NCBI RefSeq assembly: GCF_017348835.2
Contig: NZ_CP071375.1
Length of the DNA: 64,000 nucleotides
Reading direction: 5' to 3' (one strand)
Source of the DNA: Escherichia coli
GTDB taxonomy: Bacteria > Pseudomonadota > Gammaproteobacteria > Enterobacterales > Enterobacteriaceae
The notes below the pieces were generated by a model. The model ran no database searches, was not told the origin of the DNA, and saw nothing but the letters and a program-made list of their open reading frames with translations. The position numbers and the translations under genes are program-made. Shown in pieces: positions 10,243-27,989 of the stretch (positions are counted from its first letter, which is position 1; each line of letters begins with the position of its first letter).

Positions 10243-11445
10243 TTACCTGAACTGATAATGACCTTCGCCCAATCGGATAACCCTTCCCTCTTCTTCTGCG
10301 CGGTTCAGCCACACACTAATTTGTTCGATGGTTAAACCAGTACAAGACGCCAGCCTTTCAATACTTATCGATTCCTTTGCAAGGATCGCCAGTTCCGCCA
10401 CAAAGAGTTGATAAAAATCGACAGGCGTATACGCGGGCATTACTGCGTAATTTGCGTCATCTTCATGCAGCGAAAACAGTTCTGGTTGAGCGTTACGGAG
10501 TGCTCTGTCATACATCAGCCCAGGAACGTCTGGCAGTCTGATCGTCACATTCTCAGCCTGTTCAGCACTCCATGACGCCCCATTTTCTACTAATCGTGAA
10601 TTGGCTGATTGCATATCCTGATTTGGTTTAACCTGCACAGGCAGCCACTGATGTTTTAATGCCTCCATCGCCCCGGTTATCGTTCCACCGGTCATTCCCG
10701 CACGTACAACCATTGCGCTTTCAGCAAGGCAATAAATATATTTATTTCGCGCCATCGCATTGCCGACGGTGAAACGTACCTCTGGGTAAAACGGCGAAAT
10801 CAACACCAGGTTGCCTGCTATAAGCCCTTCACGCCATTTCACTAACGTACTCGTTTTTAACAAGCTATCAGCTAATACGCCAACGGCAGTTCCCCCGGCC
10901 TCCAGTGCCGACGCCATTGCACATTCATCAATACCTCGCGCACCACCAGAGATAACGCAAATCCCCTGTTGGGCCAGTTTCGCGGCCAGTTGTTGGGTAT
11001 AGCGCAAATCGTCAGTCGGAGCATCTCGCGAGCCAACAATCGCCATACCTTCCGCTTGCAGTAATGCTTTATTCCCGCAGCCAAATAAAACGGGAGGTGC
11101 ATCCGTTCGCAATCGGTTTTTCAAGCGAACGGGATAATCGGCATCTCCGCGGGTTAAGATCCATAAACCGGCGCGTTGCCACTTATCTACCGCCAACGCC
11201 AGACTATGACCGCGCGCCAGCAAGCCAAGAATACGCTCCTGAGAAATACGCGGATCGCTCCAGCCTGTAAGTTTATCTTGCGGTTGCGGCACCAGAAGCT
11301 CGGCGGGACTGATACGTTGGTGCTTCAGCCATAATGCAAACTTCCCCCATTCACTATTACTAAGAGGTTTATACTCACTCGCCGCCGCGCGAGAAAAATC
11401 GCTGGTTAGCAGGAGAGTTGCTTGTGCATTGGCTGAAAGATTCAT
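10243..11445 (-). CDS. DprA/Smf-like protein (SAM-like N-term, Rossmann DprA core with GGARGID motif, C-terminal winged-helix-like tail); partner of helicase-PRTase gene
   Basis: Track ORF 10243..11538; start set to ATG 11445..11443 (MNLSANAQATLLL...), which overlaps the upstream gene stop as TGATG; motif VISGGARGIDECAMASALEAGG typical of DprA Rossmann domain. Confidence 0.75.
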   Translation of the reverse strand: MNLSANAQATLLLTSDFSRAAASEYKPLSNSEWGKFALWLKHQRISPAELLVPQPQDKLTGWSDPRISQERILGLLARGHSLALAVDKWQRAGLWILTRGDADYPVRLKNRLRTDAPPVLFGCGNKALLQAEGMAIVGSRDAPTDDLRYTQQLAAKLAQQGICVISGGARGIDECAMASALEAGGTAVGVLADSLLKTSTLVKWREGLIAGNLVLISPFYPEVRFTVGNAMARNKYIYCLAESAMVVRAGMTGGTITGAMEALKHQWLPVQVKPNQDMQSANSRLVENGASWSAEQAENVTIRLPDVPGLMYDRALRNAQPELFSLHEDDANYAVMPAYTPVDFYQLFVAELAILAKESISIERLASCTGLTIEQISVWLNRAEEEGRVIRLGEGHYQFR

Positions 11446-13541
11446 CAATTTTTTACCGAGGTAGAAGCAAGGGCAAGAGGATAAACCGTCGGGCAACCTG
11501 CCTGGCCTAACAGTGCTGTCAGAACTGTCAGCGTCCATGCAGAATCCACGATATCGTCAACCAGCAACGCCGGACCAGGCATCAAAGGAGGGGTAATCAC
11601 AAACGCCCCGTCGAGATTTTGACACTGGTGGAAACGGTTTTGCTGCATTTTCTGCGGTGGATTGTCCACGACTTTTTCAATGGCATCAATAAAAGGTAAG
11701 CCAAGTTTCGCCGCCAGTCGCCGGGCAAAATCAGGAACCAGGTCGAGGTGCTTTAATGAAGGAACGCAGCATACCCAGGTTGGTTCAGGATGCGGATTCC
11801 AGCGTTGGCGAACCATTTCCGCACATGCCTCCACCAGTTCATCACTGAATCGCCCCGTTTTTTTCTCCTGTGCTACCTGCTTTCCCCACCCGGAATCTCC
11901 CCAACGAGAAAGGATTCGCCCCGTAGATCCTTGTAAACTCGCAGGCAAGTTCCCTTTAAATCCGTATTGCGTAAAAGCCCCAGCTGCCACCTGTTTATTG
12001 AGATTTAATGGCAGGTCAGCGTGTTTAATAAATAAGTTTGCCGCATGGAGTAAGCCGCTATCAATGTCGGGCGACAACAACGGATGCTGAAGACAACTGC
12101 TACATTTACCACAATGTTCGGCACCTGGCTCATCGAGTGCGCGGCGCAGAAATTGCATTTTGCACTCCTTGGTCGTGATATAGCTTTCAACGTCTGCCAG
12201 CTCACTTTTTCTCTGATTCATCAAATGGTTAATTCGTTCATGGTCAGGAGAAAAACTGACAATTGTTCTGCGCCATAATTTCTCGGTATACACCACAGGC
12301 GATGGATTTTCAGCTACCAATAATTTCAGTGCTTTTTCTATTTGCCCGTAACGGAGATTCGTCCGTTGTTCAATGCCTCGTAAGGTAAGACCGTCATTCA
12401 CGCTAAGTACGTTGAGTATTTCATGAATTTGCGCCTCCGCAGGAAAGGCGCTTTCACGGAAGAATTTATGAATAGCACGGTCTTCACTGCCGCAAAGCAG
12501 TATGCCAACAGCAGAATCGATACCGCGACCGGCACGCCCCACCTGTTGGTAGTAACCAACTATCGAACCTGGCATCTGGTAATGAATAACAAACCCCAAA
12601 TCCGGTTTGTCAAAGCCCATTCCCAGCGCCGTTGTCGCAACCAGCACTTTAATTTTATTTGCCAGCAACGCCTGCTCCAGATATTCCCTGGCAGTATTAG
12701 AATCTTCCGCGCCTTCACAAGTCACGCCGCTGTAGTAAGCAAATGCACTGATACCATTTTTCCTTAACCACTCGGCGACAAGTTCGGCATCGCGAGTAGT
12801 CAGGGTATAAACAATTCCCGATTTGGAAAACTGAGGGATAACTGTTGCTAACCATGCCAGACGGGATGACTGTTCACCTAAGACTAAGGCATCAAGCGCC
12901 AAACTTTCGCGAGCCAGCGTTCCACGCTGAATCACAATGTCACCCAATTGCTGACGGATATCCTCAACGACACGGTTATTCGCTGTCGCGGTTGTACCCA
13001 GAACAGGGGTATTCGCAGGTAGTTGGCGCAAAATATCTAATATACGTCGGTAATCCGGGCGAAAATCGTGGCCCCAATCAGAGATGCAGTGCGCCTCGTC
13101 GACCACAAGCAAGCCAATACGATCGGCTATAGGATATAAAACCGTTTCGATAAAGTCCTGGTTTGCCAAACGTTCCGGGGAAACCAGCAAGCAATCGACC
13201 TCACCTTGCAGCAACTTATCGCTAATGCGCTGCCATTCTTCTCTGTTTGTAGAATTCAACGTTTCAGCCGTAATACCTAACCGTTCAGCGGCGGCAACCT
13301 GGTTACGCATCAGGGCAAGCAAAGGAGAGATGATAATTGTCGGGCCAGCGCCGCGATCGCGGAAGATTTTACTGGCGATGAAGTACACAGCACTTTTCCC
13401 CCAGCCAGTGCGTTGGACAACCAGCAGTTTTCGCCGTTGGTTCACCACCGCGTCTATGGCTTCCCATTGCCCTTCCCTGAAAGTAGCGGTGGTATTTCCT
13501 AACATCCGCTGTAAAAGCAATTCAGCTGCGTGCTTTTCCAT
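11445..13541 (-). CDS. RecQ-family SF2 helicase fused to C-terminal ComF/GntX-type PRTase-like domain
   Basis: 698 aa; helicase motifs TGWGKS (Walker A), VVDEAHCISDWGHDFRPDY (DEAH), TATA, QQVGRAGR; RecQ-type Zn cluster CK...C..C..C (HCGKCSSC); C-terminal QNLDGAFVITPP...ALLVDDIVDSAWTLT resembles a PRTase fold with substituted PRPP loop; AGGAG SD 5 nt before ATG. Confidence 0.8.
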   Translation of the reverse strand: MEKHAAELLLQRMLGNTTATFREGQWEAIDAVVNQRRKLLVVQRTGWGKSAVYFIASKIFRDRGAGPTIIISPLLALMRNQVAAAERLGITAETLNSTNREEWQRISDKLLQGEVDCLLVSPERLANQDFIETVLYPIADRIGLLVVDEAHCISDWGHDFRPDYRRILDILRQLPANTPVLGTTATANNRVVEDIRQQLGDIVIQRGTLARESLALDALVLGEQSSRLAWLATVIPQFSKSGIVYTLTTRDAELVAEWLRKNGISAFAYYSGVTCEGAEDSNTAREYLEQALLANKIKVLVATTALGMGFDKPDLGFVIHYQMPGSIVGYYQQVGRAGRGIDSAVGILLCGSEDRAIHKFFRESAFPAEAQIHEILNVLSVNDGLTLRGIEQRTNLRYGQIEKALKLLVAENPSPVVYTEKLWRRTIVSFSPDHERINHLMNQRKSELADVESYITTKECKMQFLRRALDEPGAEHCGKCSSCLQHPLLSPDIDSGLLHAANLFIKHADLPLNLNKQVAAGAFTQYGFKGNLPASLQGSTGRILSRWGDSGWGKQVAQEKKTGRFSDELVEACAEMVRQRWNPHPEPTWVCCVPSLKHLDLVPDFARRLAAKLGLPFIDAIEKVVDNPPQKMQQNRFHQCQNLDGAFVITPPLMPGPALLVDDIVDSAWTLTVLTALLGQAGCPTVYPLALASTSVKN

Positions 13542-13680: not shown

Positions 13681-15021
13681 TTAACTCAACAGCTGGAACG
13701 CAATCATCCCAACGATGGCACCAACAGTGCCGAGGATGGTTTCCATCATGGTCCAGGTTTTCAGCGTTTCGGCTTCGGTCGCGCCGGTAAATTTACCGAA
13801 CAACCAGAAACCGGCGTCGTTAACGTGGCTGACAACAATCGAACCACCGGCGATACAAATCGACAGCGCCGCCATTTGCGCACCGGAATAGTTCAGTTGT
13901 TCAATGACCGGCATCACCAGCCCCACCGCCGTTAAACAGGCAACGGTGGCAGACCCCTGAATGATGCGCACTGCAGCTGCCAGCACGAAGCAGGTGATAG
14001 CAATCGGCAGGCCCATGCCGGTTAACGCTTCGCCCAGTGCCGGACCTACGCCAGAGTCAACCAGCACCTGTTTGAACACGCCGCCCGCACCAATCACCAG
14101 CAGAATGATCCCCGCCGGTTGCAGCGCGTGACCGCAAATCTCCATCACTTTGTCTTTTGGCATGCCCTGACGCATTGCCAGACCGTAAATCGCCACCAGA
14201 CAAGCAACCAGAATCGCGGTAAACGGATGACCAATAAACTCGAACCATTCGTAAGCGGTAGAGCCTTCCGGCACAAAACGCGCGGCAATGGTTTTCAGCC
14301 CCACCAGCACCAGCGGCAGCAGGATCAGCGACAGGCTGAATCCGAAGGACGGCATTTTGCCTTCGCCGAGATGCGGCTCGCTGATGTCGTCAGGAATATG
14401 CAGCTCAACGTAACGGCTGATGAAGTTACCCCACAGCGGCCCGGCAATAATCATTCCCGGAATTGCCGCACACAGGCCAATCAGGATCATCCAGCCAAAA
14501 TCGGCGTTCATCTGCGATGCCAGCAGCATTGGCGCTGGCCCTGGCACCAGGAACGCCGCCGCTGCCGCCACGCCTGCGAATAATGGGATTACCAGCTTCA
14601 CCAGGTTCGTACCGGTGTGGCGCGCCATTGAAAAAGCAACGCTAATCAGCAGAACAATCGCCACTTCAAAGAACAGCGGTAGCGCACAGACCAGCCCCGC
14701 AAGGCCGATGGCATAATGCGCGCGGCTGTGACCGAAGGATTTGAGCATTTTGACGGCAATCTGATCGACTGCGCCGGTTTCATGTAAGATCTTGCCAAAC
14801 ATAGCTCCCAGGGCGACAACCACCGCCAGGAAGCCGAGGGTGCCTCCCATCCCTTTTTCCATCGTCGCTGCGATTTTATCGAGCGGCATACCGGAAAAAA
14901 GGCCAGCCCCCATGGACACCACCATCAAAGCCAGGAAAGCGTGCATACGCGCCTTCATGACTAAAAACAGCAGCAGTAAAACAGACCCTACTGCTGTTAA
15001 AACAAGCGTTAATGTAGTCAC
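13681..15021 (-). CDS. gntU: Low-affinity gluconate transporter GntU
   Basis: 446 aa GntP-family permease ORF, MTTLTLVLTAVGSVLLLLFLVMKARMH... Confidence 0.93.
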   Translation of the reverse strand: MTTLTLVLTAVGSVLLLLFLVMKARMHAFLALMVVSMGAGLFSGMPLDKIAATMEKGMGGTLGFLAVVVALGAMFGKILHETGAVDQIAVKMLKSFGHSRAHYAIGLAGLVCALPLFFEVAIVLLISVAFSMARHTGTNLVKLVIPLFAGVAAAAAFLVPGPAPMLLASQMNADFGWMILIGLCAAIPGMIIAGPLWGNFISRYVELHIPDDISEPHLGEGKMPSFGFSLSLILLPLVLVGLKTIAARFVPEGSTAYEWFEFIGHPFTAILVACLVAIYGLAMRQGMPKDKVMEICGHALQPAGIILLVIGAGGVFKQVLVDSGVGPALGEALTGMGLPIAITCFVLAAAVRIIQGSATVACLTAVGLVMPVIEQLNYSGAQMAALSICIAGGSIVVSHVNDAGFWLFGKFTGATEAETLKTWTMMETILGTVGAIVGMIAFQLLS

Positions 15022-15024
15022 TAC

Positions 15025-15552
15025 TTATTTGCCTTTTTTAATAACCTCAATGGTGCTTGCCACAACACCTTCCAGCGGTTGATCGATATCCACCACCAGT
15101 ACATCGGTTTCGTCCGCACCCGGCTCCTGCAGCGTTTCAAACTGCGTCACCAACATTTGGGTTTTAAAGAAATGGCCTTTGCGCGCTTTCAGGCGGCTTT
15201 CAATCACATCAAAATCGCCTTTCAGGTAGATGAAAGAGAGATTCGGATTACCTTCACGCAGCAAGTCGCGATAGTGTTTTTTCAATGCAGAACAGACGAT
15301 CAGTGACACTTTATTAGTGCGCTGCATAGCAAACGCGGCGTCGTTCAGCGCCTGCAACCACGGTTTGCGATCATCGTCATTCAGCGGTTCGCCAGACGCC
15401 ATTTTTTCGATATTGCGCCGTGGATGGAGGAAATCGCCATCAAGAAACGCGGCATGAAGTTGATGCGCCACTTCACTGGCGACCGCAGATTTGCCGCTGC
15501 CCGATACGCCCATCAAGACGTAAATGTGGTGATCATGGTTAGTCGTGCTCAA
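15025..15552 (-). CDS. gntK: Gluconokinase GntK (thermoresistant)
   Basis: Track ORF 15025..15573; conserved N-terminus STTNHDHHIYVLMGVSGSGKS preceded by in-frame TTG at 15552 taken as start; P-loop kinase. Confidence 0.85.
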   Translation of the reverse strand: MSTTNHDHHIYVLMGVSGSGKSAVASEVAHQLHAAFLDGDFLHPRRNIEKMASGEPLNDDDRKPWLQALNDAAFAMQRTNKVSLIVCSALKKHYRDLLREGNPNLSFIYLKGDFDVIESRLKARKGHFFKTQMLVTQFETLQEPGADETDVLVVDIDQPLEGVVASTIEVIKKGK

Positions 15553-15584
15553 AGTGGTGCCCCCACAATACAAGAATTAAAAAT

Positions 15585-15610
15585 GTTACGGGTAACTGTT
15601 ATCGGTAACA
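15585..15610 (-). promoter_or_regulatory. Tandem GntR operator-like palindromes (GTTAC-GG-GTAAC and TGTTA-TCGG-TAACA) upstream of gntK
   Basis: Two adjacent inverted repeats matching the GntR operator consensus ATGTTACCCGTAACAT in the gntR-gntK intergenic region. Confidence 0.55.
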
Positions 15611-15690
15611 TTGTCCGGCCGGACAATATCAGAAGCAATATCCATCCGTGCCTTAAGTGTATAAGTGTGAGCTACTTCAAATTTGTGGGC

Positions 15691-16686
15691 TTAAATAGAT
15701 CCACCCGGTGACAAGGTGAAACCTAAATCTAACATTTTCGGTGTCACAGATTCGCCACGAATACGCGCCAGCAGGCGTTCAGCGCCAATACTGCCCATCC
15801 GCTCACGCGGCGTCAGCACGCTCGCAAGTCGTGGCTCCATCACCTGACCAATGTCATGACCGTGGAAACCGGCAATCGCCATATCGTCAGGAACTTTTAA
15901 CCCCAGACGCTGACATTCAAACGCCGCACCGACCGCCAGATCATCATTAGTACAGAACACGCCATCCAGCTGCGGATATTCCCGCCGCGCCTGGCGAATC
16001 AGTTCAATACCGGAAGAGTAAGAAGAAGATTGCTCAACCATCACGCTATACGGCACCAGGCCTGCATCCCGCATCGCCTGTTCGTATCCCTTCTGTTTGA
16101 TGATAGTACGTTCGTCGAGACGTGCGCCGAGATAGGCAATATGGCGATGCCCGCGAGCAATAATGGCGGCGGTCATCTGGCGTGCCGCTTCAAAGTTATC
16201 AAAACCGACGGCGATATCGAGACACGGCGACTGGCTGTCCATCAACTCCACCACCGGGATCCCCGCCACTTCAATCATCTTTAAGGTGCGCGGCGTGTGG
16301 GTACGTTCGGTGAGGATCAGTCCGTCGATATTCCATGAGAGCATTGATTCGAGACGTTCTTGCTCCATTTCCGGTTTATAACCGTAGTGGGCCAGCATGG
16401 TCTGATAACCGTGCGCGTCGGTGACGCTTTCGATTCCGCGTAATACTTCCGCAAAAACCTGGTTGGTGAGAGAAGGTAACAGGACGCCAATCGCCCGGCT
16501 GGTGGCGTTAGAGAGGATATCGGGCGCACGATTGGGAATATAGCCCAGTTCATCAAGAGCCGCGGCAATCTTGCCGCGTAGAGCGACGGAAACCTGATCC
16601 GGGTTGCGTAAAAAACGGCTGACCGTCATTTTGGTCACGCCTACACGGTCAGCCACATCCTGAAGTACGGGTCTTTTCTTTTTCAT
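15691..16686 (-). CDS. gntR: LacI-family gluconate repressor GntR
   Basis: 331 aa, N-terminal HTH MKKKRPVLQDVADRVGVTKMTVSRFL..., periplasmic-binding-like core. Confidence 0.93.
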   Translation of the reverse strand: MKKKRPVLQDVADRVGVTKMTVSRFLRNPDQVSVALRGKIAAALDELGYIPNRAPDILSNATSRAIGVLLPSLTNQVFAEVLRGIESVTDAHGYQTMLAHYGYKPEMEQERLESMLSWNIDGLILTERTHTPRTLKMIEVAGIPVVELMDSQSPCLDIAVGFDNFEAARQMTAAIIARGHRHIAYLGARLDERTIIKQKGYEQAMRDAGLVPYSVMVEQSSSYSSGIELIRQARREYPQLDGVFCTNDDLAVGAAFECQRLGLKVPDDMAIAGFHGHDIGQVMEPRLASVLTPRERMGSIGAERLLARIRGESVTPKMLDLGFTLSPGGSI

Positions 16687-16909
16687 CGTCCTGAAGGTAC
16701 AAAAGAGATAGATTCTCTTAGTTTAACACGGACGCATCAGAACCTTCCCGGGGAAAACAGTGCTTGTTTACAATTATTAGATATACACTAAATCAATTGC
16801 ATCGCATTGTGCTAACGACGCGGCAAAACCCCGGAAGCGTACATCAGCACGCGACCAGAGCGAGCGAGGAAGCCTGCAAAAAGGCAGGCTTCAAAGATGC
16901 TGTTGAGTT

Positions 16910-17605
16910 TTAAACCGGCGGCAGATCGAACAGTAACACTTCGCTGTCGCTATCCGCATGGATGGAGATTGCCTGCTCATCCCAGATTGCCAGACCATCG
17001 CTGGTCGAGGCTTTCGCGCCGTTAATGGTGACATTGCCTTTCACCACCTGGATCCAGACGCGGCGTTCAGCGGCAATCTGATGCACCGACTGCTCATCTT
17101 TCAGCAACGCCCAGCGGTACAGTTCCATATCCTGATGCACTTTCAATGAACCATCTCGCGCATCTGGCGAAAGCACCAGTTGTTTGCCCTGCACGGCATC
17201 GAAGCGACGCTGTTCATAACGCGGCGTAATACCGTTTTCTTCAGGCATGATCCAGATCTGATACAGATGCAGACGCTCGGTGCTGCTTGGGTTGTACTCT
17301 GAGTGACGAATACCCGTACCCGCACTCATAATCTGGAACTCGCCCGCCGGAACCTGCTCTTTATTGCCCATGCTGTCCTGGTGCTCAACAGTACCTTCCA
17401 GCACGTAGGTCAAAATTTCCATATCTTTATGCGGGTGAGTGCCGAAGCCCTGCCCTGCTTCAATCACGTCGTCGTTAATCACGCGCAGCGCGGAGAAGCC
17501 CATAAAGTTCGGATCGTAATAGTTGGCAAAAGAGAAAGTATGCCAGGAGTCCAGCCAGCCATGATTTGCATGACCACGTTCATTTGCTTTGCGTAAGTAG
17601 ATCAT
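16910..17605 (-). CDS. yhhW: Pirin-like quercetin 2,3-dioxygenase YhhW
   Basis: 231 aa cupin ORF MIYLRKANERGHANHGWLDSWHTFSF... Confidence 0.9.
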   Translation of the reverse strand: MIYLRKANERGHANHGWLDSWHTFSFANYYDPNFMGFSALRVINDDVIEAGQGFGTHPHKDMEILTYVLEGTVEHQDSMGNKEQVPAGEFQIMSAGTGIRHSEYNPSSTERLHLYQIWIMPEENGITPRYEQRRFDAVQGKQLVLSPDARDGSLKVHQDMELYRWALLKDEQSVHQIAAERRVWIQVVKGNVTINGAKASTSDGLAIWDEQAISIHADSDSEVLLFDLPPV

Positions 17606-17727
17606 TTGTATTCGCCCCCTGAATGATTTCGATGGGCTTAGTGTGGACCCGATCTGCCTGGGATGATAGAGGGTGAAAATTGACCCCTCTGTTCAAAAAA
17701 ATTGAACTATTTAAGGGGCCATCAAAC

Positions 17728-18765
17728 TTACTTCGCGAGAGTCACGGTGGAGGGAGAGGCTTGCTCAAATCCGCGTTCAAGGATTTCCAGATTGGTAAGA
17801 ACTTCAGATTCCTTGACGTAATTTGGCGCACCGTGGGTGATGGTTTGATACAACGCATCATAAACGCACCCGTAATCGCCCATCTCCGGCTTCATCTCTT
17901 CTCTGACCGTCACGCCCTCGTCATTGACATACTCCAGCACACCGACCGAATCATCCGCTGCGAATCCCGGTTCGCCCGGCATAATATTAGCCTTCAGGCT
18001 GGTTTCCTGCTGGTCGATACCGTATTTAATAAACGAACCTTTCTTACCGTGAACGATAAATTTCGGATAATCGATTTTCACCAGATGGCTGGTTTTGACG
18101 ATGGCTTTCAGGTCACCATAAAACAACTGCGCTTCGAAGGTGTCGTCAGGATTGGCTTTATCACGCAGGCTGCGGATGTCATAAGCGACGTGATCCGGGC
18201 GACCGAACAGAGAAATAATCTGGTCCATCGTATGCACACCAAGGCCATAGAATGCGCCATCCTGCGGCAACCCAGGTTTGGTTTCTGCGACCGGGCGGTA
18301 ATAGTCAAAATGGCTTTCCACTTCAACAATCTCTCCCAGCTTGCCGCTTTCAATCGCTTTTTTCGCCGTCAGGAAGCAGGAATCAAAGCGACGATTCTGA
18401 TACGGCGTGACGGTCAGCCCTTTGCTTTTCGCCAACGCAAACAGCTCCTTCGCCTGGGCAAGCGTCGGGGTGAACGGTTTTTCGACCAGCACATTTTTCC
18501 CGGCTTCCAGCGCGCGTTTCGCGTACTCGAAATGGCTGTCCGCGTGGGTGCAGACAACAACCAGCTTAACATCGGGATCGTTTAGTACTTCGTCGAGATC
18601 GCTGGTGAAATGGATATGGGAATAAATGGGAGCCTGTTCTTCCGGCTTCGCATGGCGACGAAAAATATGCGCGACATGCCAGCTATCCTTGCGGTTAAGT
18701 ACATACGGCAGATGGTAACGGGTGGTGCTTTTGCCGAAGCCAATAAAGGCGCAGTTGATGACCAT
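17728..18765 (-). CDS. yhhX: Gfo/Idh/MocA-family NAD(P)-dependent oxidoreductase YhhX
   Basis: 345 aa, MVINCAFIGFGKSTTRYHLPYV... Rossmann N-terminus. Confidence 0.9.
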   Translation of the reverse strand: MVINCAFIGFGKSTTRYHLPYVLNRKDSWHVAHIFRRHAKPEEQAPIYSHIHFTSDLDEVLNDPDVKLVVVCTHADSHFEYAKRALEAGKNVLVEKPFTPTLAQAKELFALAKSKGLTVTPYQNRRFDSCFLTAKKAIESGKLGEIVEVESHFDYYRPVAETKPGLPQDGAFYGLGVHTMDQIISLFGRPDHVAYDIRSLRDKANPDDTFEAQLFYGDLKAIVKTSHLVKIDYPKFIVHGKKGSFIKYGIDQQETSLKANIMPGEPGFAADDSVGVLEYVNDEGVTVREEMKPEMGDYGCVYDALYQTITHGAPNYVKESEVLTNLEILERGFEQASPSTVTLAK

Positions 18766-18886
18766 GATTTCGTCCTTTTTAAGGTGGTTATTTACACCTT
18801 AGCGCAAAGCGGACGTGGTTCCTACTGGAGTGCGCATAACGAACACAAGCACTCCCGTGGATAAATTGAGAACGAAAGATCAAAAA

Positions 18887-18976
18887 AAAAGCCAGCACCC
18901 GGCTGGCTAAGTAATACTGGAAGCAATGTGAGCAATGTCGTGCTTTCAGGTTCTCCGCGAGGGTCTTCCTGATCGC
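18887..18976 (-). ncRNA. ryhB: RyhB small RNA (Fur-repressed, iron-sparing regulator)
   Basis: Minus-strand sequence GCGATCAGGAAGACCCTCGCGGAGAACCTGAAAGCACGACATTGCTCACATTGCTTCCAGTATTACTTAGCCAGCCGGGTGCTGGC + U-tract matches RyhB; located between yhhX and yhhY as expected. Confidence 0.9.
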
Positions 18977-18980
18977 GAGA

Positions 18981-19000
18981 CAATAATAATCATTCTCATT
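18981..19000 (-). promoter_or_regulatory. Fur box overlapping ryhB promoter
   Basis: caataataatcattctcatt resembles Fur consensus GATAATGATAATCATTATC, immediately upstream of the RyhB 5' end. Confidence 0.7.
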
Positions 19001-19098
19001 CGCACTTGTCCAACACTTTTTGCAAAAAAATGCATTTGACTCGTATTTGAAAGTCAATGATGTTGAAAGGGACATTTACCCCAAATGAGGACAAAGGA

Positions 19099-19587
19099 AT
19101 GAGTGAGATAGTGATACGCCATGCTGAAACGCGCGATTACGAGGCCATCAGGCAGATTCACGCCCAGCCGGAGGTGTATTGCAACACGCTACAAGTGCCT
19201 CATCCTTCCGATTATATGTGGCAGGAGCGACTCGCCGATCGTCCCGGCATCAAGCAACTCGTCGCCTGTATTGATGGAGACGTCGTGGGCCATCTCACCA
19301 TTGACGTGCAACAGCGCCCACGCCGCAGTCATGTTGCCGATTTTGGTATCTGTGTCGACTCCCGTTGGAAGAATCGCGGCGTCGCCAGCGCCTTTATGCG
19401 AGAGATGATTGAAATGTGCGACAACTGGTTGCGGGTAGATCGTATCGAGCTAACGGTGTTCGTCGATAACGCGCCAGCAATTAAGGTCTATAAAAAATAC
19501 GGCTTTGAAATTGAAGGGACTGGTAAGAAGTACGCATTGCGTAATGGTGAATATGTTGATGCGTATTATATGGCGCGGGTGAAATAA
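19099..19587 (+). CDS. yhhY: GNAT-family N-acetyltransferase YhhY
   Basis: Track ORF from 19057; conserved start MSEIVIRHAETRDYEAIRQIH at ATG 19099. Confidence 0.88.
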   Translation: MSEIVIRHAETRDYEAIRQIHAQPEVYCNTLQVPHPSDYMWQERLADRPGIKQLVACIDGDVVGHLTIDVQQRPRRSHVADFGICVDSRWKNRGVASAFMREMIEMCDNWLRVDRIELTVFVDNAPAIKVYKKYGFEIEGTGKKYALRNGEYVDAYYMARVK

Positions 19588-19612
19588 AGAATTTGCAATC
19601 TAAGTTTGCCAT

Positions 19613-19643
19613 TTAAGCCCTCACCTACCGGGAGAGGGCTTAA
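19613..19643. terminator. Bidirectional hairpin between convergent yhhY and ggt (ttaagccctc / gagggcttaa)
   Basis: 10-bp perfect inverted repeat with 11-nt loop in the 60-bp yhhY-ggt gap. Confidence 0.45.
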
Positions 19644-19647
19644 GATA

Positions 19648-21381
19648 TTAATAACCCGCCGTTAAATCATCCACCGAGCGCGGATCGGATGCGCCGTACA
19701 ACTCACCGTCCGGCCCAACCATAATGCTTTGTGTACTGCCCATCGCCTCTTTCAGCGCCACTTTCTGACCTTTTGCTTCCAGCAGCTTGAGCGTATCCGG
19801 GCTAAACCCTTTTTCGACACGCAGCTCGTCCGGCAACCACTGATGGTGGAAACGCGGCGCATTGGTCGCTTCGGCGACGTTCATGCCATAATCGATGCTA
19901 TTCACCACCATTTGAAGCACTGTAGTGATGATCCGGCTCCCGCCAGGGCTACCGGTGACCAGCCAGGTTTTACCGTCTTTCACCAAAATGGTGGGTGACA
20001 TCGACGACAGCGGGCGTTTATTCGGCCCGACCGCGTTGGCATCACCGCCCACCAGCCCGTAAACGTTCGGTACGCCCGGTTTGGCGGAGAAATCATCCAT
20101 CTGGTTATTAAGCAGAATACCGCTCTCGCCCGCGACAATACCCGTACCGAAGGTGGTGTTCAGCGTATAGGTCACCGCCACGGCGTTACCGTCTTTATCC
20201 ACCACTGAGTAATGGGTAGTTTGATTACTCTCATAAGGCGCAAGCTTGCCAGGGCGAATCTCGCTGGACGGTTTCGCTTTATTGATATCGATTTGCTCGG
20301 CAATAGATTTGGCATAGGCTTTATTGGTCAGCGCCTGCCACGGGACTTTCATAAAATCCGGGTCGCCAAGATATTCCGAGCGGTCAGCGTAGGCATATTT
20401 CTCCGCTTCTGCCATGATCTGCATCGCATCGGCGCTGCCAAAGCCGTATTTCTTCATATCGAAGTTTTCCAGAATATTGAGGATTTGTACGATATGGATC
20501 CCGCCGGAGGATGGCGGTGGCATGGAGTAAACCTGATACCCGCGATAATCGCCGCTTATCGGTGTGCGTTCGACCGCTTTATACGCCGCTAAATCTTCTT
20601 TAGTGATCAGGCCACCGTTTTTCTGCATCTCCTGGGCAATCTGTTCCGCTATCGTGCCTTTGTAGAATTCGTCCGGGCCGTTTTCGGCAATCATCTCCAG
20701 GCTCTTTGCCAGGTTCGCCTGCACCAGCTTGTCGCCCTTTTTCAGCGGCTCGCCCTCTTTCCAGAAGATAGCCTTGCTGTTTTCGTGATTCGGCAGCACT
20801 TCGCTCCCGTAGGTTTTGAGATCGTCAGCCAGCGCGTCGTTAACGATAAAACCATCGCGTGCCAGTTTAAACGCTGGCTGCACCACTTTGTTCAACGGCA
20901 TTGTGCCGTATTTATCCAACGCCAGCGAGAAACCAGCGACCGTACCGGGCGTGCCGGAAGCCAGATGCGAAGTGAGTGATTTTTTGCTGTCCGGGTTACC
21001 CTGATCATCAAGGAACATATCGCGGGTCGCTTTGGCGGGTGCCATTTCGCGGAAATCGATAGCGGTGGTATTGCCATTTTTCGAGCGGATCAGCATAAAA
21101 CCACCACCGCCCAGATTCCCTGCCTGCGGATGCGTTACCGCCAGCGCGTAGCCCACAGCCACGGCGGCATCAACGGCATTCCCGCCCTCCTTGAGGATAT
21201 CCACCCCCACCTGAGTGGCAGTAGCATCTACAGATGCCACCATCCCCTGTTTCGCGCGTACCGGATGGAAGACATCTTCCTCCACGCCGTAAGAAACAGG
21301 AGGCGCAGCGGCGGCGCTAAAACAACTTCCTGAGAGCAGAGCAGCAATGGCCACCCGGCGTAAAAACGTCGGTTTTATCAT
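19648..21381 (-). CDS. ggt: Gamma-glutamyltranspeptidase
   Basis: Track ORF 19648..21408; start set to MIKPTFLRRVAIAALLSGSCFSAAA (signal peptide) at 21381; Ntn-hydrolase. Confidence 0.9.
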   Translation of the reverse strand: MIKPTFLRRVAIAALLSGSCFSAAAAPPVSYGVEEDVFHPVRAKQGMVASVDATATQVGVDILKEGGNAVDAAVAVGYALAVTHPQAGNLGGGGFMLIRSKNGNTTAIDFREMAPAKATRDMFLDDQGNPDSKKSLTSHLASGTPGTVAGFSLALDKYGTMPLNKVVQPAFKLARDGFIVNDALADDLKTYGSEVLPNHENSKAIFWKEGEPLKKGDKLVQANLAKSLEMIAENGPDEFYKGTIAEQIAQEMQKNGGLITKEDLAAYKAVERTPISGDYRGYQVYSMPPPSSGGIHIVQILNILENFDMKKYGFGSADAMQIMAEAEKYAYADRSEYLGDPDFMKVPWQALTNKAYAKSIAEQIDINKAKPSSEIRPGKLAPYESNQTTHYSVVDKDGNAVAVTYTLNTTFGTGIVAGESGILLNNQMDDFSAKPGVPNVYGLVGGDANAVGPNKRPLSSMSPTILVKDGKTWLVTGSPGGSRIITTVLQMVVNSIDYGMNVAEATNAPRFHHQWLPDELRVEKGFSPDTLKLLEAKGQKVALKEAMGSTQSIMVGPDGELYGASDPRSVDDLTAGY

Positions 21382-21500
21382 CGTTATTCTCCAGAGATTA
21401 ATGGGCAACCCCAGCTAAGCCTGGTATATAACTCTGAATTAATCCTGATGATTGCAGGAAAGGAGTAAACTTAAAGAATATCTTCAGAGGAGGATACGCG

Positions 21501-21941
21501 ATGAAACGACTTCTGATTCTTACGGCACTCCTGCCGTTTGTCGGCTTTGCACAGCCCATTAATACTCTGAATAACCCTAACCAGCCGGGGTATCAGATCC
21601 CCAGTCAGCAGCGGATGCAAACCCAAATGCAAACGCAGCAAATCCAGCCAAAAGGGATGCTGAATCAGCAACTGAAAACGCAAACTCAGTTGCAACAGCA
21701 GCATTTAGAAAACCAGATAAACAATAATTCTCAGCGGGTGTTGCAGTCACAGCCGGGGGAGCGAAATCCCGCCCGGCAGCAAATGCTGCCCAACACCAAC
21801 GGCGGGATGTTAAACAGCAACCGTAATCCGGATAGTTCGTTGAATCAGCAGCATATGCTGCCGGAGAGGAGAAACGGCGACATGCTGAATCAGCCCAGCA
21901 CGCCGCAGCCTGATATACCGTTGAAAACTATTGGGCCGTAA
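21501..21941 (+). CDS. yhhA: Secreted Q-rich DUF2756 protein YhhA
   Basis: 146 aa, signal peptide [17 protein letters not shown] followed by Gln-rich low-complexity region. Confidence 0.85.
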
Positions 21942-22671
21942 AGTTCGGACCTATCACGTCAATGGCATCGGTACAGATGCAATCCACGCCCCAGCGCAGC
22001 AACTCTGCCGCGCGCTGGGGTTTATTGACGGTATAAACCAGAATCCGTAATCCGGCGTCTTTTAACTGCATCACTCGCGCTTTATCGAGCAACTTATGAT
22101 TGAGATGAATAGAGACGCAGCCCAGCCGCGTGGTCAGTTCGCGCCAGTCGTCGCGCCATTCATCCAGCAACAAACCGCGCGGCAGTTCTGGTACTGCCTG
22201 TTGTGCGGCTTCTAAAGCATCAATCTCAAACGATGACAGCAGCGGCGGCGTCATTCCGGCCCACAGTTCGCGTGCCGCCAGCGCCACCATTTTGCCCGTT
22301 AATGGCCCAGTGCCAGTGGTGGGTTTGATTTCGATATTCGCCATCATCCCATGTTCGCGACAGCGTTCCGCCACCTGCGAAAGCAACGGCAGCGGCTCAC
22401 CTTTAAACGCTTTGCTGTACCAACTGCCCGCATCCACGCGCAGTAAATCCTGCCAGTTCAGTTCACCCGCGACGCCCCAGCCGTTGCTGGTGCGTTCGAG
22501 GTTGTCATCATGGAGCAGAAAGATCTCGCCATCTTTCGATAACTTCGCGTCAAATTCGATCATCTTATGACCGTATTTTGCCCCAACGTCGATTGCCGCC
22601 AGGGTGTTTTCCGGGGCCAGCTTACCGCCGCCACGATGAGCGACGATGCGGGGATAAGGCCAGTTACTCAT
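21928..22671 (-). CDS. ugpQ: Glycerophosphodiester phosphodiesterase UgpQ
   Basis: 247 aa, [23 protein letters not shown]... GDPD motif HRG. Confidence 0.93.
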
Positions 22672-23738
22672 ACTCGTTGTCCTGTTTCACCATCAAAAAG
22701 ATGCAGCTGATTTTCCGCCAGATGCAGCCACAGCGTGCTGCCTGCCGTCGGGCGCTCCTGATGCGCCAGTCGCACCACCAGCTTCTGTTCGCCCCAGCGT
22801 CCGTGCGCCAGGTTATCTGCGCCGAGGATCTCCAGCGTGTCCATCACCAGCGGAACGCCACCTTCTGCCTGCGAGCTTAGCGCAATATGTTCCGGGCGAA
22901 TGCCGAGAGTCATTTTACGCCCGGCATACTGACGGTAGCCACCGTTTAGCGGCAGCACAATACCGCCGTCCAGTTCGAAATGCGTGCCTTCGTTATTCAC
23001 GCGGCCTGTCAGCAGGTTCATCGCCGGGCTACCGATAAAACTCGCCACAAACAGACTGGCGGGCTTTTCGTAGACTTCAACTGGCGTGCCAATCTGTTCA
23101 GCAACGCCGCCGTTCATCACCATTACTCGCTGGGCGAGGGTCATCGCCTCAACCTGATCGTGAGTAACGTAGAGTGAAGTCGTTTTCAGGCGACGGTGCA
23201 GCTGTTGCAGTTCAAGACGCATCTGTACGCGCAGCTTGGCATCGAGGTTAGAGAGCGGCTCATCAAACAGGAACACCGCCGGATCGCGCACAATTGCGCG
23301 GCCCATCGCCACACGCTGACGCTGACCACCGGAAAGCTCGCGTGGGCGACGTTTGAGCAGGCCGTCCAGCTCCAGAATGCGCGCCGCTTCTTTAACGCGC
23401 TCGGCAATTTGCTGCTTGCCCATGCCGCGAATTTTCAGCCCCCACGCCATGTTTTCTTCAACACTCATATGCGGATAAAGCGCGTAGTTCTGGAACACCA
23501 TCGCAATCCCGCGATCTTTCGGCTCCATTTCGGTCACCCGCTGGTCGTTGATCCAGATATCGCCTTCCGTCACCCGCTCCAGCCCAGCAACCATGCGCAG
23601 CAGCGTCGATTTCCCGCAGCCTGACGGCCCGACCATCACGATAAATTCGCCATCCGCCACATCAAGGGTCAGCGGTTTAATCACCTGGGTTTTGCCATCC
23701 CAGCTTTTAGTTACTGCCTGTAATTTCAGTCCTGCCAT
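22668..23738 (-). CDS. ugpC: sn-glycerol-3-phosphate ABC transporter ATPase UgpC
   Basis: Track ORF to 23777; conserved start [15 protein letters not shown] at 23738; Walker A GPSGCGKS. Confidence 0.92.
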
Positions 23739-23739
23739 C

Positions 23740-24585
23740 TTATTTCTCACTATCGACCAGGCCGCGCACGAAGGCACGCTGCATCACTAAAACAATCACT
23801 ACTGGTGGGATCAGGGTTAACAACATCGCAGCCATCACCGAGTTCCATTCTGTGGTGCCTTCGCCAGTGGCGATCATCCCTTTGATCCCTGCCACGGTGG
23901 TGCCGAGATCCACGTCGGTAATAATCAACAACGGCCACAAATACTGGTTCCAGCCGTAAATAAAGGTGATCACAAACAACGCCGCCAGATTAGTTTTGGA
24001 CAACGGAAAAACGATGTCGCAAAAGAAGCGCATTGGCGACGCGCCGTCGATCCGCGCGGCTTCCACCAGTTCATCCGGTAGGGTCATAAAGAACTGGCGG
24101 AAAAGAAACGTCGCGGTCGCCGAGGCCATCAGCGGCAGCGTTAAACCTGCGTAGCTGTCGAGCATCTTCAGGTTGGCGATGACTTCCACCGTCGGGAAGA
24201 TACGTACTTCAACCGGCAACATCAGGGTGATAAAAATCATCCAGAAAAAGAGGTTACGCAGCGGAAAACGAAACCAGACAATGGCGAATGCCGAGAGCAT
24301 CGAGACGGTAATTTTGCCGAGCGTAATGCTGAACGCCATCACGAAGCTGTTAAGCAACATCCGCCAGAACGGCGCACTATTTGTGCCTACCCCGTTTACC
24401 CAGATGTTGTGGATGTTTTCCAGCAGATGCGTGCCGGGGATGAGCGTCATCGGCGCGGCGTAGACGGCCTGTTTATCCAGCGTCGCCGCGACAAACGCCA
24501 CGTACAGCGGGAAGAGGATCACCGCGATCCCGAGGATCAGCATGGTATGGCTGAATATCGTCAGCCACGGACGGTTCTCAATCAT
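23740..24585 (-). CDS. ugpE: sn-glycerol-3-phosphate ABC transporter permease UgpE
   Basis: 281 aa multi-TM ORF. Confidence 0.93.
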
Positions 24586-25469
24586 TGGTAACGCACCTTG
24601 CTTTCAACATAGCGGAACTGCACCACCGTCAGCACGATGACGAGGAACATCAACACCACCGACTGTGCGGCAGACGAAGCCAGATCCAGTCCGGTAAAGC
24701 CTTCGCGGTAGATCTTATAAATCAGCGTCGTGGTGGCCTGAACCGGCCCGCCGGACGTGGCGGCGTCGATCACCGGGAAGGTGTCGAAGAAGGCATACAC
24801 CAGGTTCACTACCAGCAGGAAGAAACTCACCGGGGCGATAAGCGGCAGCGCAATCTTAAAGAAGCGGCGAATCGGCCCTGCACCGTCGATGGCTGCGGCT
24901 TCGATCAACGAACGGGGAATGGATTGCAGCGCGGCATAGAAGAACAGGAAGTTGTAGCTGATTTGCTTCCACACCGAGGCAAACACCACCAGAAACATTG
25001 CCTGACCGCTGTTTTGTGCGTGGTTCCAGTCGTAGCCGAACTCAGCGAGAAAATGGGTGATCAGCCCGCGACCGGGGTTAAACAGGAAGATCCACAATAC
25101 GGCGGCAACGGCGGGAGCCACGGCATACGGCAGCAGCATCAAGGTTTGATAGAAACGACTGCCGCGCACGATGTACTCCACCAGCGCCGCAAAGAACAGC
25201 GATACCAGCAAACCGCTGACGGTGACAAAGGTGCTGAATTTAATCGTCGTCCAGAAGGAGTCGATATAGTAGCTGTCATGAAACAGCGCGACGAAGTTAT
25301 CCAGGCCGACAAACTGGCTGGAGAAACCAAACGGATCGACGCTTTGCAGCGAGTACCACAACGCTTCGCCCGCAGGCCAGATAAAAAAGATAACGGTGAT
25401 GATGAGCTGCGGCGCGACCAGCAAATAAGGCAGCCAGCGCGAGCGGAACACCAGACGGGATGATGACAT
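24582..25469 (-). CDS. ugpA: sn-glycerol-3-phosphate ABC transporter permease UgpA
   Basis: 295 aa multi-TM ORF, overlaps ugpE start. Confidence 0.93.
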
Positions 25470-25566
25470 TACGGTTAATTCCTGAACTGTGCCGGATGCG
25501 CTTCGCTTATCCGGCCTACACGCGATGCCAGGTCAGATAAGCGAAACGCATCCGACATTACACTGA

Positions 25567-26883
25567 TTAAGACTTCGTCGATTTCTCAAAGCGGCGCAGC
25601 AACTGATTTCCACGCTCAACGGCGGTATCCAGTGCCTGCTGTGGTGTCTTCTTACCGGTCCACACGCTCTCCAGCTCTTCATCCACAATCACGCGGATCT
25701 GCGGCATGTTGCCCAGACGCAGACCTTTGGTGAACGGCAACGGCGGCTTGTTCAGCATCTGACGCGTCGCGGTATCCGCCCCTGGGTTTTTCTCGTAAAA
25801 GCCCTGCTCACGAGTCAGGTCATACGCCGCTTTGGTGATTGGCAGATAACCGGTTTTCTGATGCCACTCGGCAGCATTTTCTGGCTTCGCGAGGAAGTCG
25901 AGGAACTTCGCCACACCTGTATACGTTTCTTTATCTTTGCCCTGCATCACCCACAGGCTGGCTCCGCCGATAATGGCATTTTGTGGCGCATCTTTCGCAT
26001 CAGCGTCGTAAGGCATCATGCCTACGCCGTAGTTAAATTTGGCGTACTCGCGAATGTTGGCAAGAGAACCGGAAGAGGCGGTCGTCATCGCGCAATCACC
26101 GTTATAGAACTTCTCGGTGGATTCATCCTTACGCCCGACGTAGCTGAAATCGCCCTTCTTGTTCATATCTTCGAGCATGGCGATGTGTTTCACCTGCTCC
26201 GGCTTGTTGAACTCCAGCACCGCATCCGTGCCGTCAAAGCCGTTGTTTTTGCTGGCAAACGGCAGACCGTTCCAGGCGCTAAAGTTTTCCAGTTGGATCC
26301 AGCCCTGCCAGCCGCTGGCGTAGCCGCACTTCATTCCGGAGGCTTTCAGTTTTGCAGAATAGTCCGCCAGATCCTGCCAGGTTTTCGGCGGCTGTTCCGG
26401 GTCTAATCCTGCTTTCTTGAAGGCGTCTTTGTTGTAATAGAGAACGGGGGTCGAGCTGTTGAATGGCTGGGAGAGTAAGTGGCCCGTTTTGCTGTCGGAG
26501 TAGTAACCGGAAACCGTCGGCACAAACTGCGACTCATCGAATTGAATCCCCGCCTCTTTAAACACGTCATATACCGGTTTAATGGCATTCGACGCCATCA
26601 TGGTGGCGGTGCCAACTTCATAAACCTGCAAAATAGCCGGAGCATTGCCGGTACGAAATGCGGCAATCCCCGCGCTTAAATTCTGTTCGTAGTTGCCTTT
26701 ATAGGTCGGTACAATTTTGTAATCCGGGTTTTCGGCGTTAAAACGTTGGGCCAGAGAATCCACCTCTTTACCCAGTTCCCCTTCCATAGAATGCCAGAAC
26801 GGAATGGTTGTCACTGCCTGTGCATTCCCCATTAACGCCAGTCCGAGCGCCAGTGCTGAAGCTGTATAATGTAACGGTTTCAT
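25567..26883 (-). CDS. ugpB: sn-glycerol-3-phosphate periplasmic binding protein UgpB
   Basis: 438 aa with signal peptide [23 protein letters not shown]. Confidence 0.93.
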
Positions 26884-27242: not shown

Positions 27243-27989
27243 TCATTGCACCACACTCTGCTTCAACCATTCATTGGCGGTCTTAATCCATTCCCGGTGG
27301 TGTTTTCTATAATGAGGTCTTGAGCGTTTAGCCGTATCAACTACAGCAACATACTGCTCGTTGGCTTCACGTAACCGACTCATTTTCGCCAACATTTCCG
27401 CATAGTAAATACGCGCCTGCGGGCCGGGGTAATAAGAAATCAATACTTCAAACTCGCTTTCCGCATCAGCGTATTTTTCTTGTGCGGCTAACGTTCTGGC
27501 AAATAACAAATGCCCGTCTGCCGACTGAAAATCAGGGTTATAACGCATCACATCTTCCAGCGTCTGCTGACAGGCGGCGAACTCCTGAATAGCAAACTGT
27601 GCCTGCGCCAGGCTTAGCATCATTGCCGCTTCATGGGCGAATATCCCGCTTAACGCCTGCTGATAATGGGGAACAGCTTCGTGATAACGCCCCAGGCGCG
27701 CCAGTTCATTAGCCAACGCATAATGGTTTTGATTCGTCTCGGCAATCGCCAGTTCTTCGGTTAATTTGCGCAGGTGGCGCTCAGGGTTGAGTTTGTCCTG
27801 CAGGCGCATCAGCAAAGTATGCCCGTGACGGTCAGCGCCCGTTTCAGGCAGCATCACTATGACGAAATACGCCACGCAGCCAATCACCGGAAAACAGAAA
27901 ATGATAAAAATCCAGTACCGCTCTTGTCCGGTACGGTAAGCGTGAATACAGCAAAGCAGTTCAAGCATGACAACAACGGCATAATGCAT
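27243..27989 (-). CDS. Membrane-anchored protein: N-terminal PLDc_N-like two-helix domain + TPR-like repeats
   Basis: 248 aa ORF; N-terminus YWIFIIFCFPVIGCVAYFVIVM resembles the PLDc_N small membrane domain; remainder has TPR-like helical repeats; sits between ugpB and livF. Confidence 0.65.
   Translation of the reverse strand: MHYAVVVMLELLCCIHAYRTGQERYWIFIIFCFPVIGCVAYFVIVMLPETGADRHGHTLLMRLQDKLNPERHLRKLTEELAIAETNQNHYALANELARLGRYHEAVPHYQQALSGIFAHEAAMMLSLAQAQFAIQEFAACQQTLEDVMRYNPDFQSADGHLLFARTLAAQEKYADAESEFEVLISYYPGPQARIYYAEMLAKMSRLREANEQYVAVVDTAKRSRPHYRKHHREWIKTANEWLKQSVVQ

Follow-up and report, generated by a model that had tools for sequence, protein, structure and literature searches.

An unoccupied yhhY-ggt site in Escherichia coli with an apparently ancestral 60-bp spacer and a conserved hairpin

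In a 64,000-nucleotide stretch of Escherichia coli DNA (NCBI RefSeq assembly GCF_017348835.2, contig NZ_CP071375.1; hereafter the window), we found that the convergent core genes yhhY and ggt are separated by a 60-bp spacer with one hairpin, at a site that carries low-GC cargo in most sequenced E. coli. Taking the explanation as a whole, we hold with good confidence that these 60 bp represent the original, never-occupied spacer between the two genes or, alternatively, an empty allele restored in this strain by homologous exchange; that the hairpin would be held by selection at the joint 3' ends, acting in the nascent RNA of both genes and not as a recombination site; and that in most E. coli a toxin/immunity islet related to type VI secretion (T6SS) would have been inserted downstream of the yhhY stop, with a variant of this hairpin on its other side.

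The yhhY-ggt spacer in the window

The locus comprises the following features (positions are those of the window):

19099..19587, + strand: yhhY, GNAT N-acetyltransferase of 162 aa, left core flank (ORF list; RefSeq annotation of strain F2_81; Pfam Acetyltransf_1, 4e-17)
19588..19647, no strand: spacer of 60 bp between the stops of the convergent genes, the unoccupied and apparently ancestral state of the yhhY-ggt variable site
19613..19622, no strand: hairpin 5' arm, TTAAGCCCTC (fold and sequence)
19623..19633, no strand: hairpin loop, ACCTACCGGGA, 11 nt with 2-3 inner pairs
19634..19643, no strand: hairpin 3' arm, GAGGGCTTAA, its last base 4 nt ahead of the ggt stop
19648..21381, - strand: ggt, gamma-glutamyltransferase of 577 aa, right core flank

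The yhhY stop codon TAA occupies 19585-19587 and that of ggt (TTA on the + strand) 19648-19650. A preliminary description of this DNA had reported a gap of only 60 bp with a single perfect 10-bp inverted repeat, and coordinates, fold and annotation all agreed with it. The RefSeq annotation of strain F2_81 (pig, Australia) gave the same gene boundaries; this strain was 100% identical to window positions 19100-20100, and a second pig strain, PE164, was 100% identical to positions 13800-25800. As RNA, the hairpin folded at -21.2 kcal/mol on the + strand and -21.0 kcal/mol on the - strand (z = -3.8 and -3.4, respectively), and none of 200 shuffles folded as well.

Cargo at the site in other genomes

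The preliminary description had placed yhhZ, yrhA, an IS1 copy and yrhB at this site in K-12. The annotation of K-12 DH10B bore this out and added one small gene, yrhD: the yhhY-ggt interval there holds tssD/yhhZ, a yrhA-family gene, IS1, yrhD and yrhB, 3,454 bp in total. This yhhZ-yrhA-(IS1)-yrhD-yrhB islet, an orphan Hcp-ET toxin-immunity module, lies at the same chromosomal site as the window's spacer, and the window shows that site empty. None of the islet genes occurs in the window, whereas K-12 has lost the 60-bp spacer, carries a different allele of the ggt-side hairpin and has an extra hairpin directly after yhhY. This extra hairpin (GCCCTTTTTC..GAAAAAGGG) was considered as a duplicated half of the ancestral hairpin and rejected, as it is missing from the yrhB-only and DUF4225 states and shows no convincing similarity.

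In Pfam, YhhZ matched T6SS_HCP together with a weak HNH match, YrhB matched Imm35, and the O157-type cargo matched DUF4225. In previous studies, YhhZ was described as an orphan 'evolved Hcp' whose HNH domain is degenerate (PMC2907695) and was placed in a His-Me finger group (PMC5714182), and Hcp-ET proteins have been reviewed as polymorphic T6SS effectors with immunity genes downstream (PMC6730261). DUF4225 was found by experiment to be an antibacterial T6SS toxin, with a small transmembrane immunity protein encoded adjacent to it (PMC9765294), and the gene pair of O157 and SM107 (DUF4225 plus a small membrane protein) matches this arrangement. Cargo GC content was 0.32-0.38 versus 0.53 for the window, in agreement with a foreign origin. 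The islet consists of the Hcp-HNH protein YhhZ with YrhA, YrhD and the Imm35 protein YrhB, or of a DUF4225 toxin paired with a small membrane protein, or of YrhB alone. In K-12 the IS1 copy interrupts yrhA, no IS1 is found in APEC, and strain 730V1 has lost yhhZ-yrhA through an IS1-mediated deletion; erosion of the islet would proceed through IS1 and deletions, and effectors would be replaced as in polymorphic toxin loci. Between lineages, the islet would presumably have spread through homologous recombination within the core genes on either side.

The yhhZ-yrhAB cluster was flagged earlier as genomic island Gist34 (PMC3309015). Section 11 of that article ascribes a methionine-to-cysteine conversion to the E. 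coli cluster; this attribution appears to confuse it with the unrelated yrhA/yrhB of B. subtilis, the E. coli proteins belonging to the Hcp-HNH and Imm35 families.

Two further kinds of cargo were observed outside this set. In Franconibacter pulveris (locus L032, 7751-10261), a three-gene methionine-type (metNIQ-like) ABC transporter, encoding ATPase, permease and lipoprotein, lies between yhhY and ggt. The 183-kb plasmid pWP4-S18-ESBL-07_1 (locus L052) carries at 4189-4365 a 177-bp ggt 3' fragment (91.6% identity) that begins exactly at the ggt stop and is preceded by a hairpin, CCCCCGGTGCAGTGTACAGGGGG, and a cluster encoding a PfkB kinase, a glutamine amidotransferase, a DMT transporter and a phosphotriesterase-like protein, which suggests that this cluster occupies the same ggt-proximal site in some donor species.

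Frequency of the empty and occupied states

State-specific junction probes were run against 5,426 complete E. coli genomes, with the following counts, which are frequencies among sequenced genomes and not in nature, given the biased sampling of RefSeq:

K-12-type islet (left junction probe): 3,826 genomes (about 70%)
DUF4225 module, O157-type (left junction probe): 343 genomes (about 6%)
yrhB alone (left junction probe): 230 genomes (about 4%)
Empty (the window's 60-bp spacer as probe): 823 genomes
yhhY and ggt contiguous within about 1 kb (1-kb query): 1,237 genomes

Subtraction of the 230 yrhB-only genomes from the 1,237 contiguous ones implies about 1,007 empty sites, so that 15-19% of sequenced E. 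coli keep the empty arrangement, ST131 (JJ1886) and the window's own pig-associated lineage included. The shortfall of 184 genomes, in which yhhY and ggt are contiguous and the 60-bp spacer gave no megablast match, probably arises because megablast missed spacers carrying at least three mismatches, of the kind seen in E69; two extra empty-site genomes that were inspected have the standard spacer. Universal adjacency of yhhY and ggt would have spoken against the preliminary reading of the window as an unoccupied site, and it is not what these genomes show, since about 80% of them carry cargo. A systematic sample of 59 genomes, in which the match span of a 12-kb query gave the insert size, comprised 41 K-12-type sites (with or without IS1), 12 empty, 4 DUF4225-type and 2 yrhB-only sites. 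Within B2, the flanks of empty (H119-124) and of occupied (H125-129) genomes were equally distant from the window, and the site polymorphism therefore segregates within phylogroups.

Ancestry of the empty state

With YhhY as the query, we searched a single genome for each GTDB species and placed ggt by tblastn. Of the 37 loci scored outside the E. coli collection, 33 had the two genes side by side and convergent at a distance of 34-122 bp, an arrangement seen in E. albertii, E. whittamii, Escherichia sp. E1V33, Citrobacter, Enterobacter, Klebsiella, Lelliottia, Pluralibacter and others; exceptions in other genera, namely the Franconibacter cargo above, a Pluralibacter interval of 369 bp and, in another genome, a 231-bp palindrome (tandem) array, show that this interval is at times filled outside Escherichia as well. 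The spacers of E. albertii, E69 and E1V33 (60-62 bp in E. albertii and E1V33) were plainly orthologous and nearly identical to that of the window (AGAATTTGCAATCTAAG.TTG.CATTTAAGCCCTC...GAGGGCTTAAGA.A), and the 70-bp spacer of E. whittamii was recognisably related to it. These orthologous spacers indicate that the empty arrangement predates E. coli, the empty yhhY-ggt state being ancestral and the islet a derived insertion. The comparison confirms that the yhhZ-yrhB cluster of K-12 is a derived islet of type VI toxin/immunity genes with low GC content.

It is possible, if unlikely, that the empty site of the window is instead secondary, a yhhZ- or DUF4225-type islet having once been present and then lost by allelic replacement or deletion. 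Such a loss would fit the relationships of the surrounding DNA: over 12 kb, the window is 98.1% identical to O157-type (DUF4225) genomes and 96.0% identical to ST131-type empty genomes, it has the PsyrTA and TPR neighbour inserts (described below) in common with O157 and SM107, and the B2 genomes above carry empty and occupied states on near-identical flanking haplotypes. The 60-bp spacer is, however, an intact, scar-free ortholog of the E. albertii/E1V33 spacer, which excludes a simple deletion and leaves only replacement by an ancestral-type allele; even this would leave the identity of the spacer sequence unchanged. The YhhY protein of the window is 98.8% identical to that of K-12 and 94.4% identical to its counterpart in JJ1886, an ST131 strain with an empty site; its nearness to K-12 means that the allele history of the strain is reticulate, and the empty allele may have been acquired again secondarily.

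We also observed that yhhY is unusually diverged among E. coli, with 91.6-97.5% nucleotide identity to the window versus 96-98% over the 12-kb surroundings. This divergence could reflect old haplotypes linked to differing states of the site.

Conservation of the hairpin stem

In a MAFFT alignment of eight hairpin variants the 3' arms fell out of register; this alignment was set aside, and stem pairs were tabulated by anchoring on the CCCTC/GAGGG core. Outside this invariant core, the Escherichia stem showed paired double changes at the three positions next to it (position 1, G-C or C-G; position 2, A-T, T-A or G-C; position 3, A-T, C-G or T-A) across the window, E. whittamii, locus L014 and MS20649, with stem pairs kept across Escherichia while the loops and the 8 nt adjoining ggt varied freely. 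In E. albertii (locus L010, about 6457-6518), the same stem encloses the loop TCCCGGTAGGCGA, which is ACCTACCGGGA of E. coli in reverse complement; the centre of the palindrome has flipped in situ with the stem kept. Paired stem changes, free loop and loop flip together argue that structure, not sequence, is held by selection, and both position and stem have been retained since before the E. coli-E. albertii split.

The motif GCCCTC..GAGGGC had one match within the 64-kb window, the 60-bp spacer was single-copy in each of the 823 E. coli genomes carrying it, and an Rfam scan of 19300-19950 (E up to 10) returned chance matches only (Guanidine-III, 17 bits; sR10, 10 bits). Compared with REP/BIME elements, which have many copies and a family consensus, the hairpin was found at one place per genome and matched no Rfam family. 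These data bear on the suggestion that it is a decayed dispersed repeat (REP/BIME or another small palindrome) with no locus-specific function, which we regard as improbable. The idea takes its support from other genera, where Klebsiella, Citrobacter and several Enterobacter have REP-like GCCGGATAAGGCG palindromes at the same position and the nested CCCTCTCCC...GGGAGAGGG palindromes of Enterobacter and Lelliottia resemble the GCCCTC...GGGAGAGGGC of the window; it is at odds with the single-copy state, the uniqueness within the window, the blank Rfam result and the compensatory changes by which the stem was kept in place. The palindromes of the other genera have the position, the general 3' intergenic role and part of the core in common with the window's hairpin, and differ from it in being multi-copy families, the Escherichia hairpin being single-copy and locus-specific.

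As a separate observation, the spacers of Enterobacter, Lelliottia, Klebsiella and Citrobacter (loci L017-L044) contained either nested palindromes of the form CCCTCACCC..CCCTCTCCC..GGGAGAGGG..GGGTGAGGGG or REP-like GCCGGGTAAGGCG elements, with fold energies of up to -85 kcal/mol over 122 nt.

A putative 3'-end element common to yhhY and ggt

The hairpin is separated by 4 nt from the stop of ggt and by 25 nt from that of yhhY, and it has the GC-rich stem-loop of an intrinsic terminator (GCCCTC/GAGGGC core, -18 to -21 kcal/mol). Neither strand has a U-tract, taken as about 5 or more U in the 8 nt directly 3' of the stem, the stem being followed on the + strand by GAUAUUAA and on the - strand by AUGGCAAA. 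A consensus terminator scan did not call the window hairpin. T-tail scores, computed with a formula of the d'Aubenton-Carafa type, were 0.6-1.9 for the window hairpin versus 2.76 for its K-12-type counterpart read in the ggt direction. The hairpin of the window is thus not a canonical intrinsic terminator. It resembles one, exemplified by the K-12-type ggt hairpin (GCCCTCTTC-GTGG-GAAGAGGGC then UAUUUUGU, ggt sense), in its GC-rich stem, comparable stability and position directly after the ggt stop, and differs from it in lacking the U-rich tail.

Bidirectional terminators between convergent E. coli genes were reportedly described by Ju et al. in 2019. The window hairpin, common to two convergent genes (yhhY on the + strand, ggt on the - strand), is placed as such an element would be, and its flanks are palindromic only in TTAA; with the 6-bp core taken as the stem, both RNA tails start with UUAA and the T-score is about 1.9 for each. 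Like the bidirectional terminators and collision stem-loops of convergent genes, it is a lone GC-cored hairpin central between two stops, with GAGGGC-UUAA read on the RNA of each strand; unlike those bidirectional terminators, it has no real U-tract or A-tract, and its role in termination is putative. Most likely, it would serve as a shared 3'-end element of both convergent transcripts, combining weak bidirectional termination, or the positioning of polymerase collisions, with a barrier to 3' exonucleases. In line with this reading, there is evidence that the RNA polymerase collisions which end both transcripts of a convergent E. coli gene pair depend for their positioning on a stem-loop in the nascent RNA (Wang et al. 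2022, bioRxiv 10.1101/2022.10.23.513370).

Junctions of the cargo and the question of site-specific integration

The preliminary description had proposed that aligning this interval with genomes carrying the yhhZ island would define the insertion point relative to the hairpin. In such alignments, ungapped homology between the window and the occupied states stopped at the yhhY stop (19587; 19592 for the O157 type) and restarted at the ggt stop, 19648, so that the 60-bp spacer was not simply split but replaced from stop to stop. All occupied states have an identical 36-bp ggt-proximal end, consisting of the hairpin GCCCTCTTC-CCAC-GAAGAGGGC followed by CGCTAACC. This hairpin has the same GCCCTC/GAGGGC core as that of the window, its 3' arm AGAGGGC is in the window's register, 8 nt from the ggt stop, and its loop resembles those of the empty-site alleles of E. 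whittamii and L014 (CCCACCGA, CCAACCGA). Based on this likeness in core, register and loop, we read the occupied-state (K-12-type) hairpin as probably an orthologous allele of the site's own hairpin, an orthology that rests on a 6-7 nt core in register and on the E. whittamii/L014 intermediates and not on a long alignment. If it is orthologous, the cargo sits downstream of the yhhY stop and ahead of the 5' arm. What may be left of the left half-spacer at the O157-type left junction (AGAAT...TTGCC) fits this placement. Alternatively, the hairpin may have been imported together with yrhB, as its terminator, and the entire spacer exchanged.

One candidate for a breakpoint within the spacer was discarded: in strain HS-02 (locus L008, 7650-8000), ~350 bp of extremely GC-rich, low-complexity sequence replace the yhhY 3' end and the left half-spacer, almost certainly as an assembly or basecalling artefact.

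The preliminary description had gone on to interpret the window as the unoccupied state of an integration hotspot. In essence, this interpretation held up: differing cargo lies between the same core genes and an empty state exists, giving four E. coli states (3,826, 343, 230 and 823-1,007 genomes), of which the occupied ones differ in their left-hand cargo (Hcp-HNH versus DUF4225) and have the last 36 bp in common. The label 'variable site' or 'hotspot' is fair because there are at least three E. coli cargo configurations in addition to the Franconibacter cargo and that next to the plasmid ggt fragment. Signs of site-specific integration were missing. Only IS1, in K-12, was annotated as a mobile gene, with no integrase or recombinase in the occupied states of K-12, APEC, O157, SM107 and MS20649. 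The island junctions showed neither direct nor inverted repeats (att sites or target-site duplications) and no shared words of 7 nt or more; the 8-mer GCGCGGGT, tried as an att or target-duplication candidate, sits inside both core genes and is irrelevant.

Site-specific integration at the hairpin is largely refuted by these results, and we consider it very unlikely that the hairpin is an attachment or target site for cassettes and the locus a true integration hotspot. That the cargo always adjoins the hairpin 8 nt from the ggt stop, that the plasmid ggt fragment also has a hairpin at its junction, and that the inverted E. albertii loop could be taken as the sign of a recombinationally or replicatively active palindrome would all suit an attachment site. 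They stand against occupied states whose sole mobile gene, IS1, lies in yrhA and is missing from APEC, against the lack of junction repeats or target duplications, against homology that breaks at the stop codons and not within the hairpin, and against the same right end in three occupied states, which for this reason are probably not independent integrations. We give hardly any credence to an integrase-free variant, in which the hairpin would anchor cassette exchange and T6SS toxin/immunity modules would be swapped time and again directly 5' of it by hairpin-promoted template switching or illegitimate recombination; if it were true, the E. albertii loop inversion would be a footprint of that activity.

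Returning to an islet inserted beside a selected 3'-end hairpin, the simplest history may be that a toxin/immunity array with yrhB at its end was acquired once, long ago, after which its cargo turned over and decayed and homologous exchange in the core flanks spread or removed it. An 89-bp stretch at 73% identity, matching the 5' end of yrhB and the region upstream of it, is present in both the yrhB-only and the DUF4225 states, beside the common 36-bp end.

Earlier literature covers the site, its K-12 cargo and the kind of genes that make up this cargo; an ancestral empty allele and a conserved 3' hairpin are unremarkable in comparative genomics, and the difference described here is ordinary, known strain variation, of slight importance beyond bookkeeping and opening no long-standing question. 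For annotation, the hairpin can be labelled as a conserved 3'-end element and the site used as a presence/absence marker; the locus may also offer a modest natural example for studying how convergent transcription is ended by hairpins that lack a U-tract.

Neighbouring variable sites and genes

Two other variable sites were observed near the locus. Between yhgN and gntU (10243-13541, - strand), the window carries a two-gene insert encoding a DprA-like protein (431 aa) and a RecQ-like helicase (698 aa), which PADLOC matched to PsyrA (3.8e-202) and PsyrT (E = 0) of the PsyrTA/RqlHI toxin-antitoxin defence pair. This insert is present in O157 and SM107 and missing from K-12 and APEC, and thus marks a second variable site, 6 kb from yhhY-ggt, which is occupied in this strain. 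Between ugpB and livF (27243-27989, - strand), a gene for a 248-aa TPR-repeat protein, present in O157 and SM107 and missing from APEC E16002, represents a third small presence/absence site nearby. Finally, the RyhB sRNA gene lies between yhhX and yhhY (18883-18947, - strand; Rfam RF00057, 83 bits), with a T8 terminator at 18908-18890 and a promoter-like site at 19012-18983.
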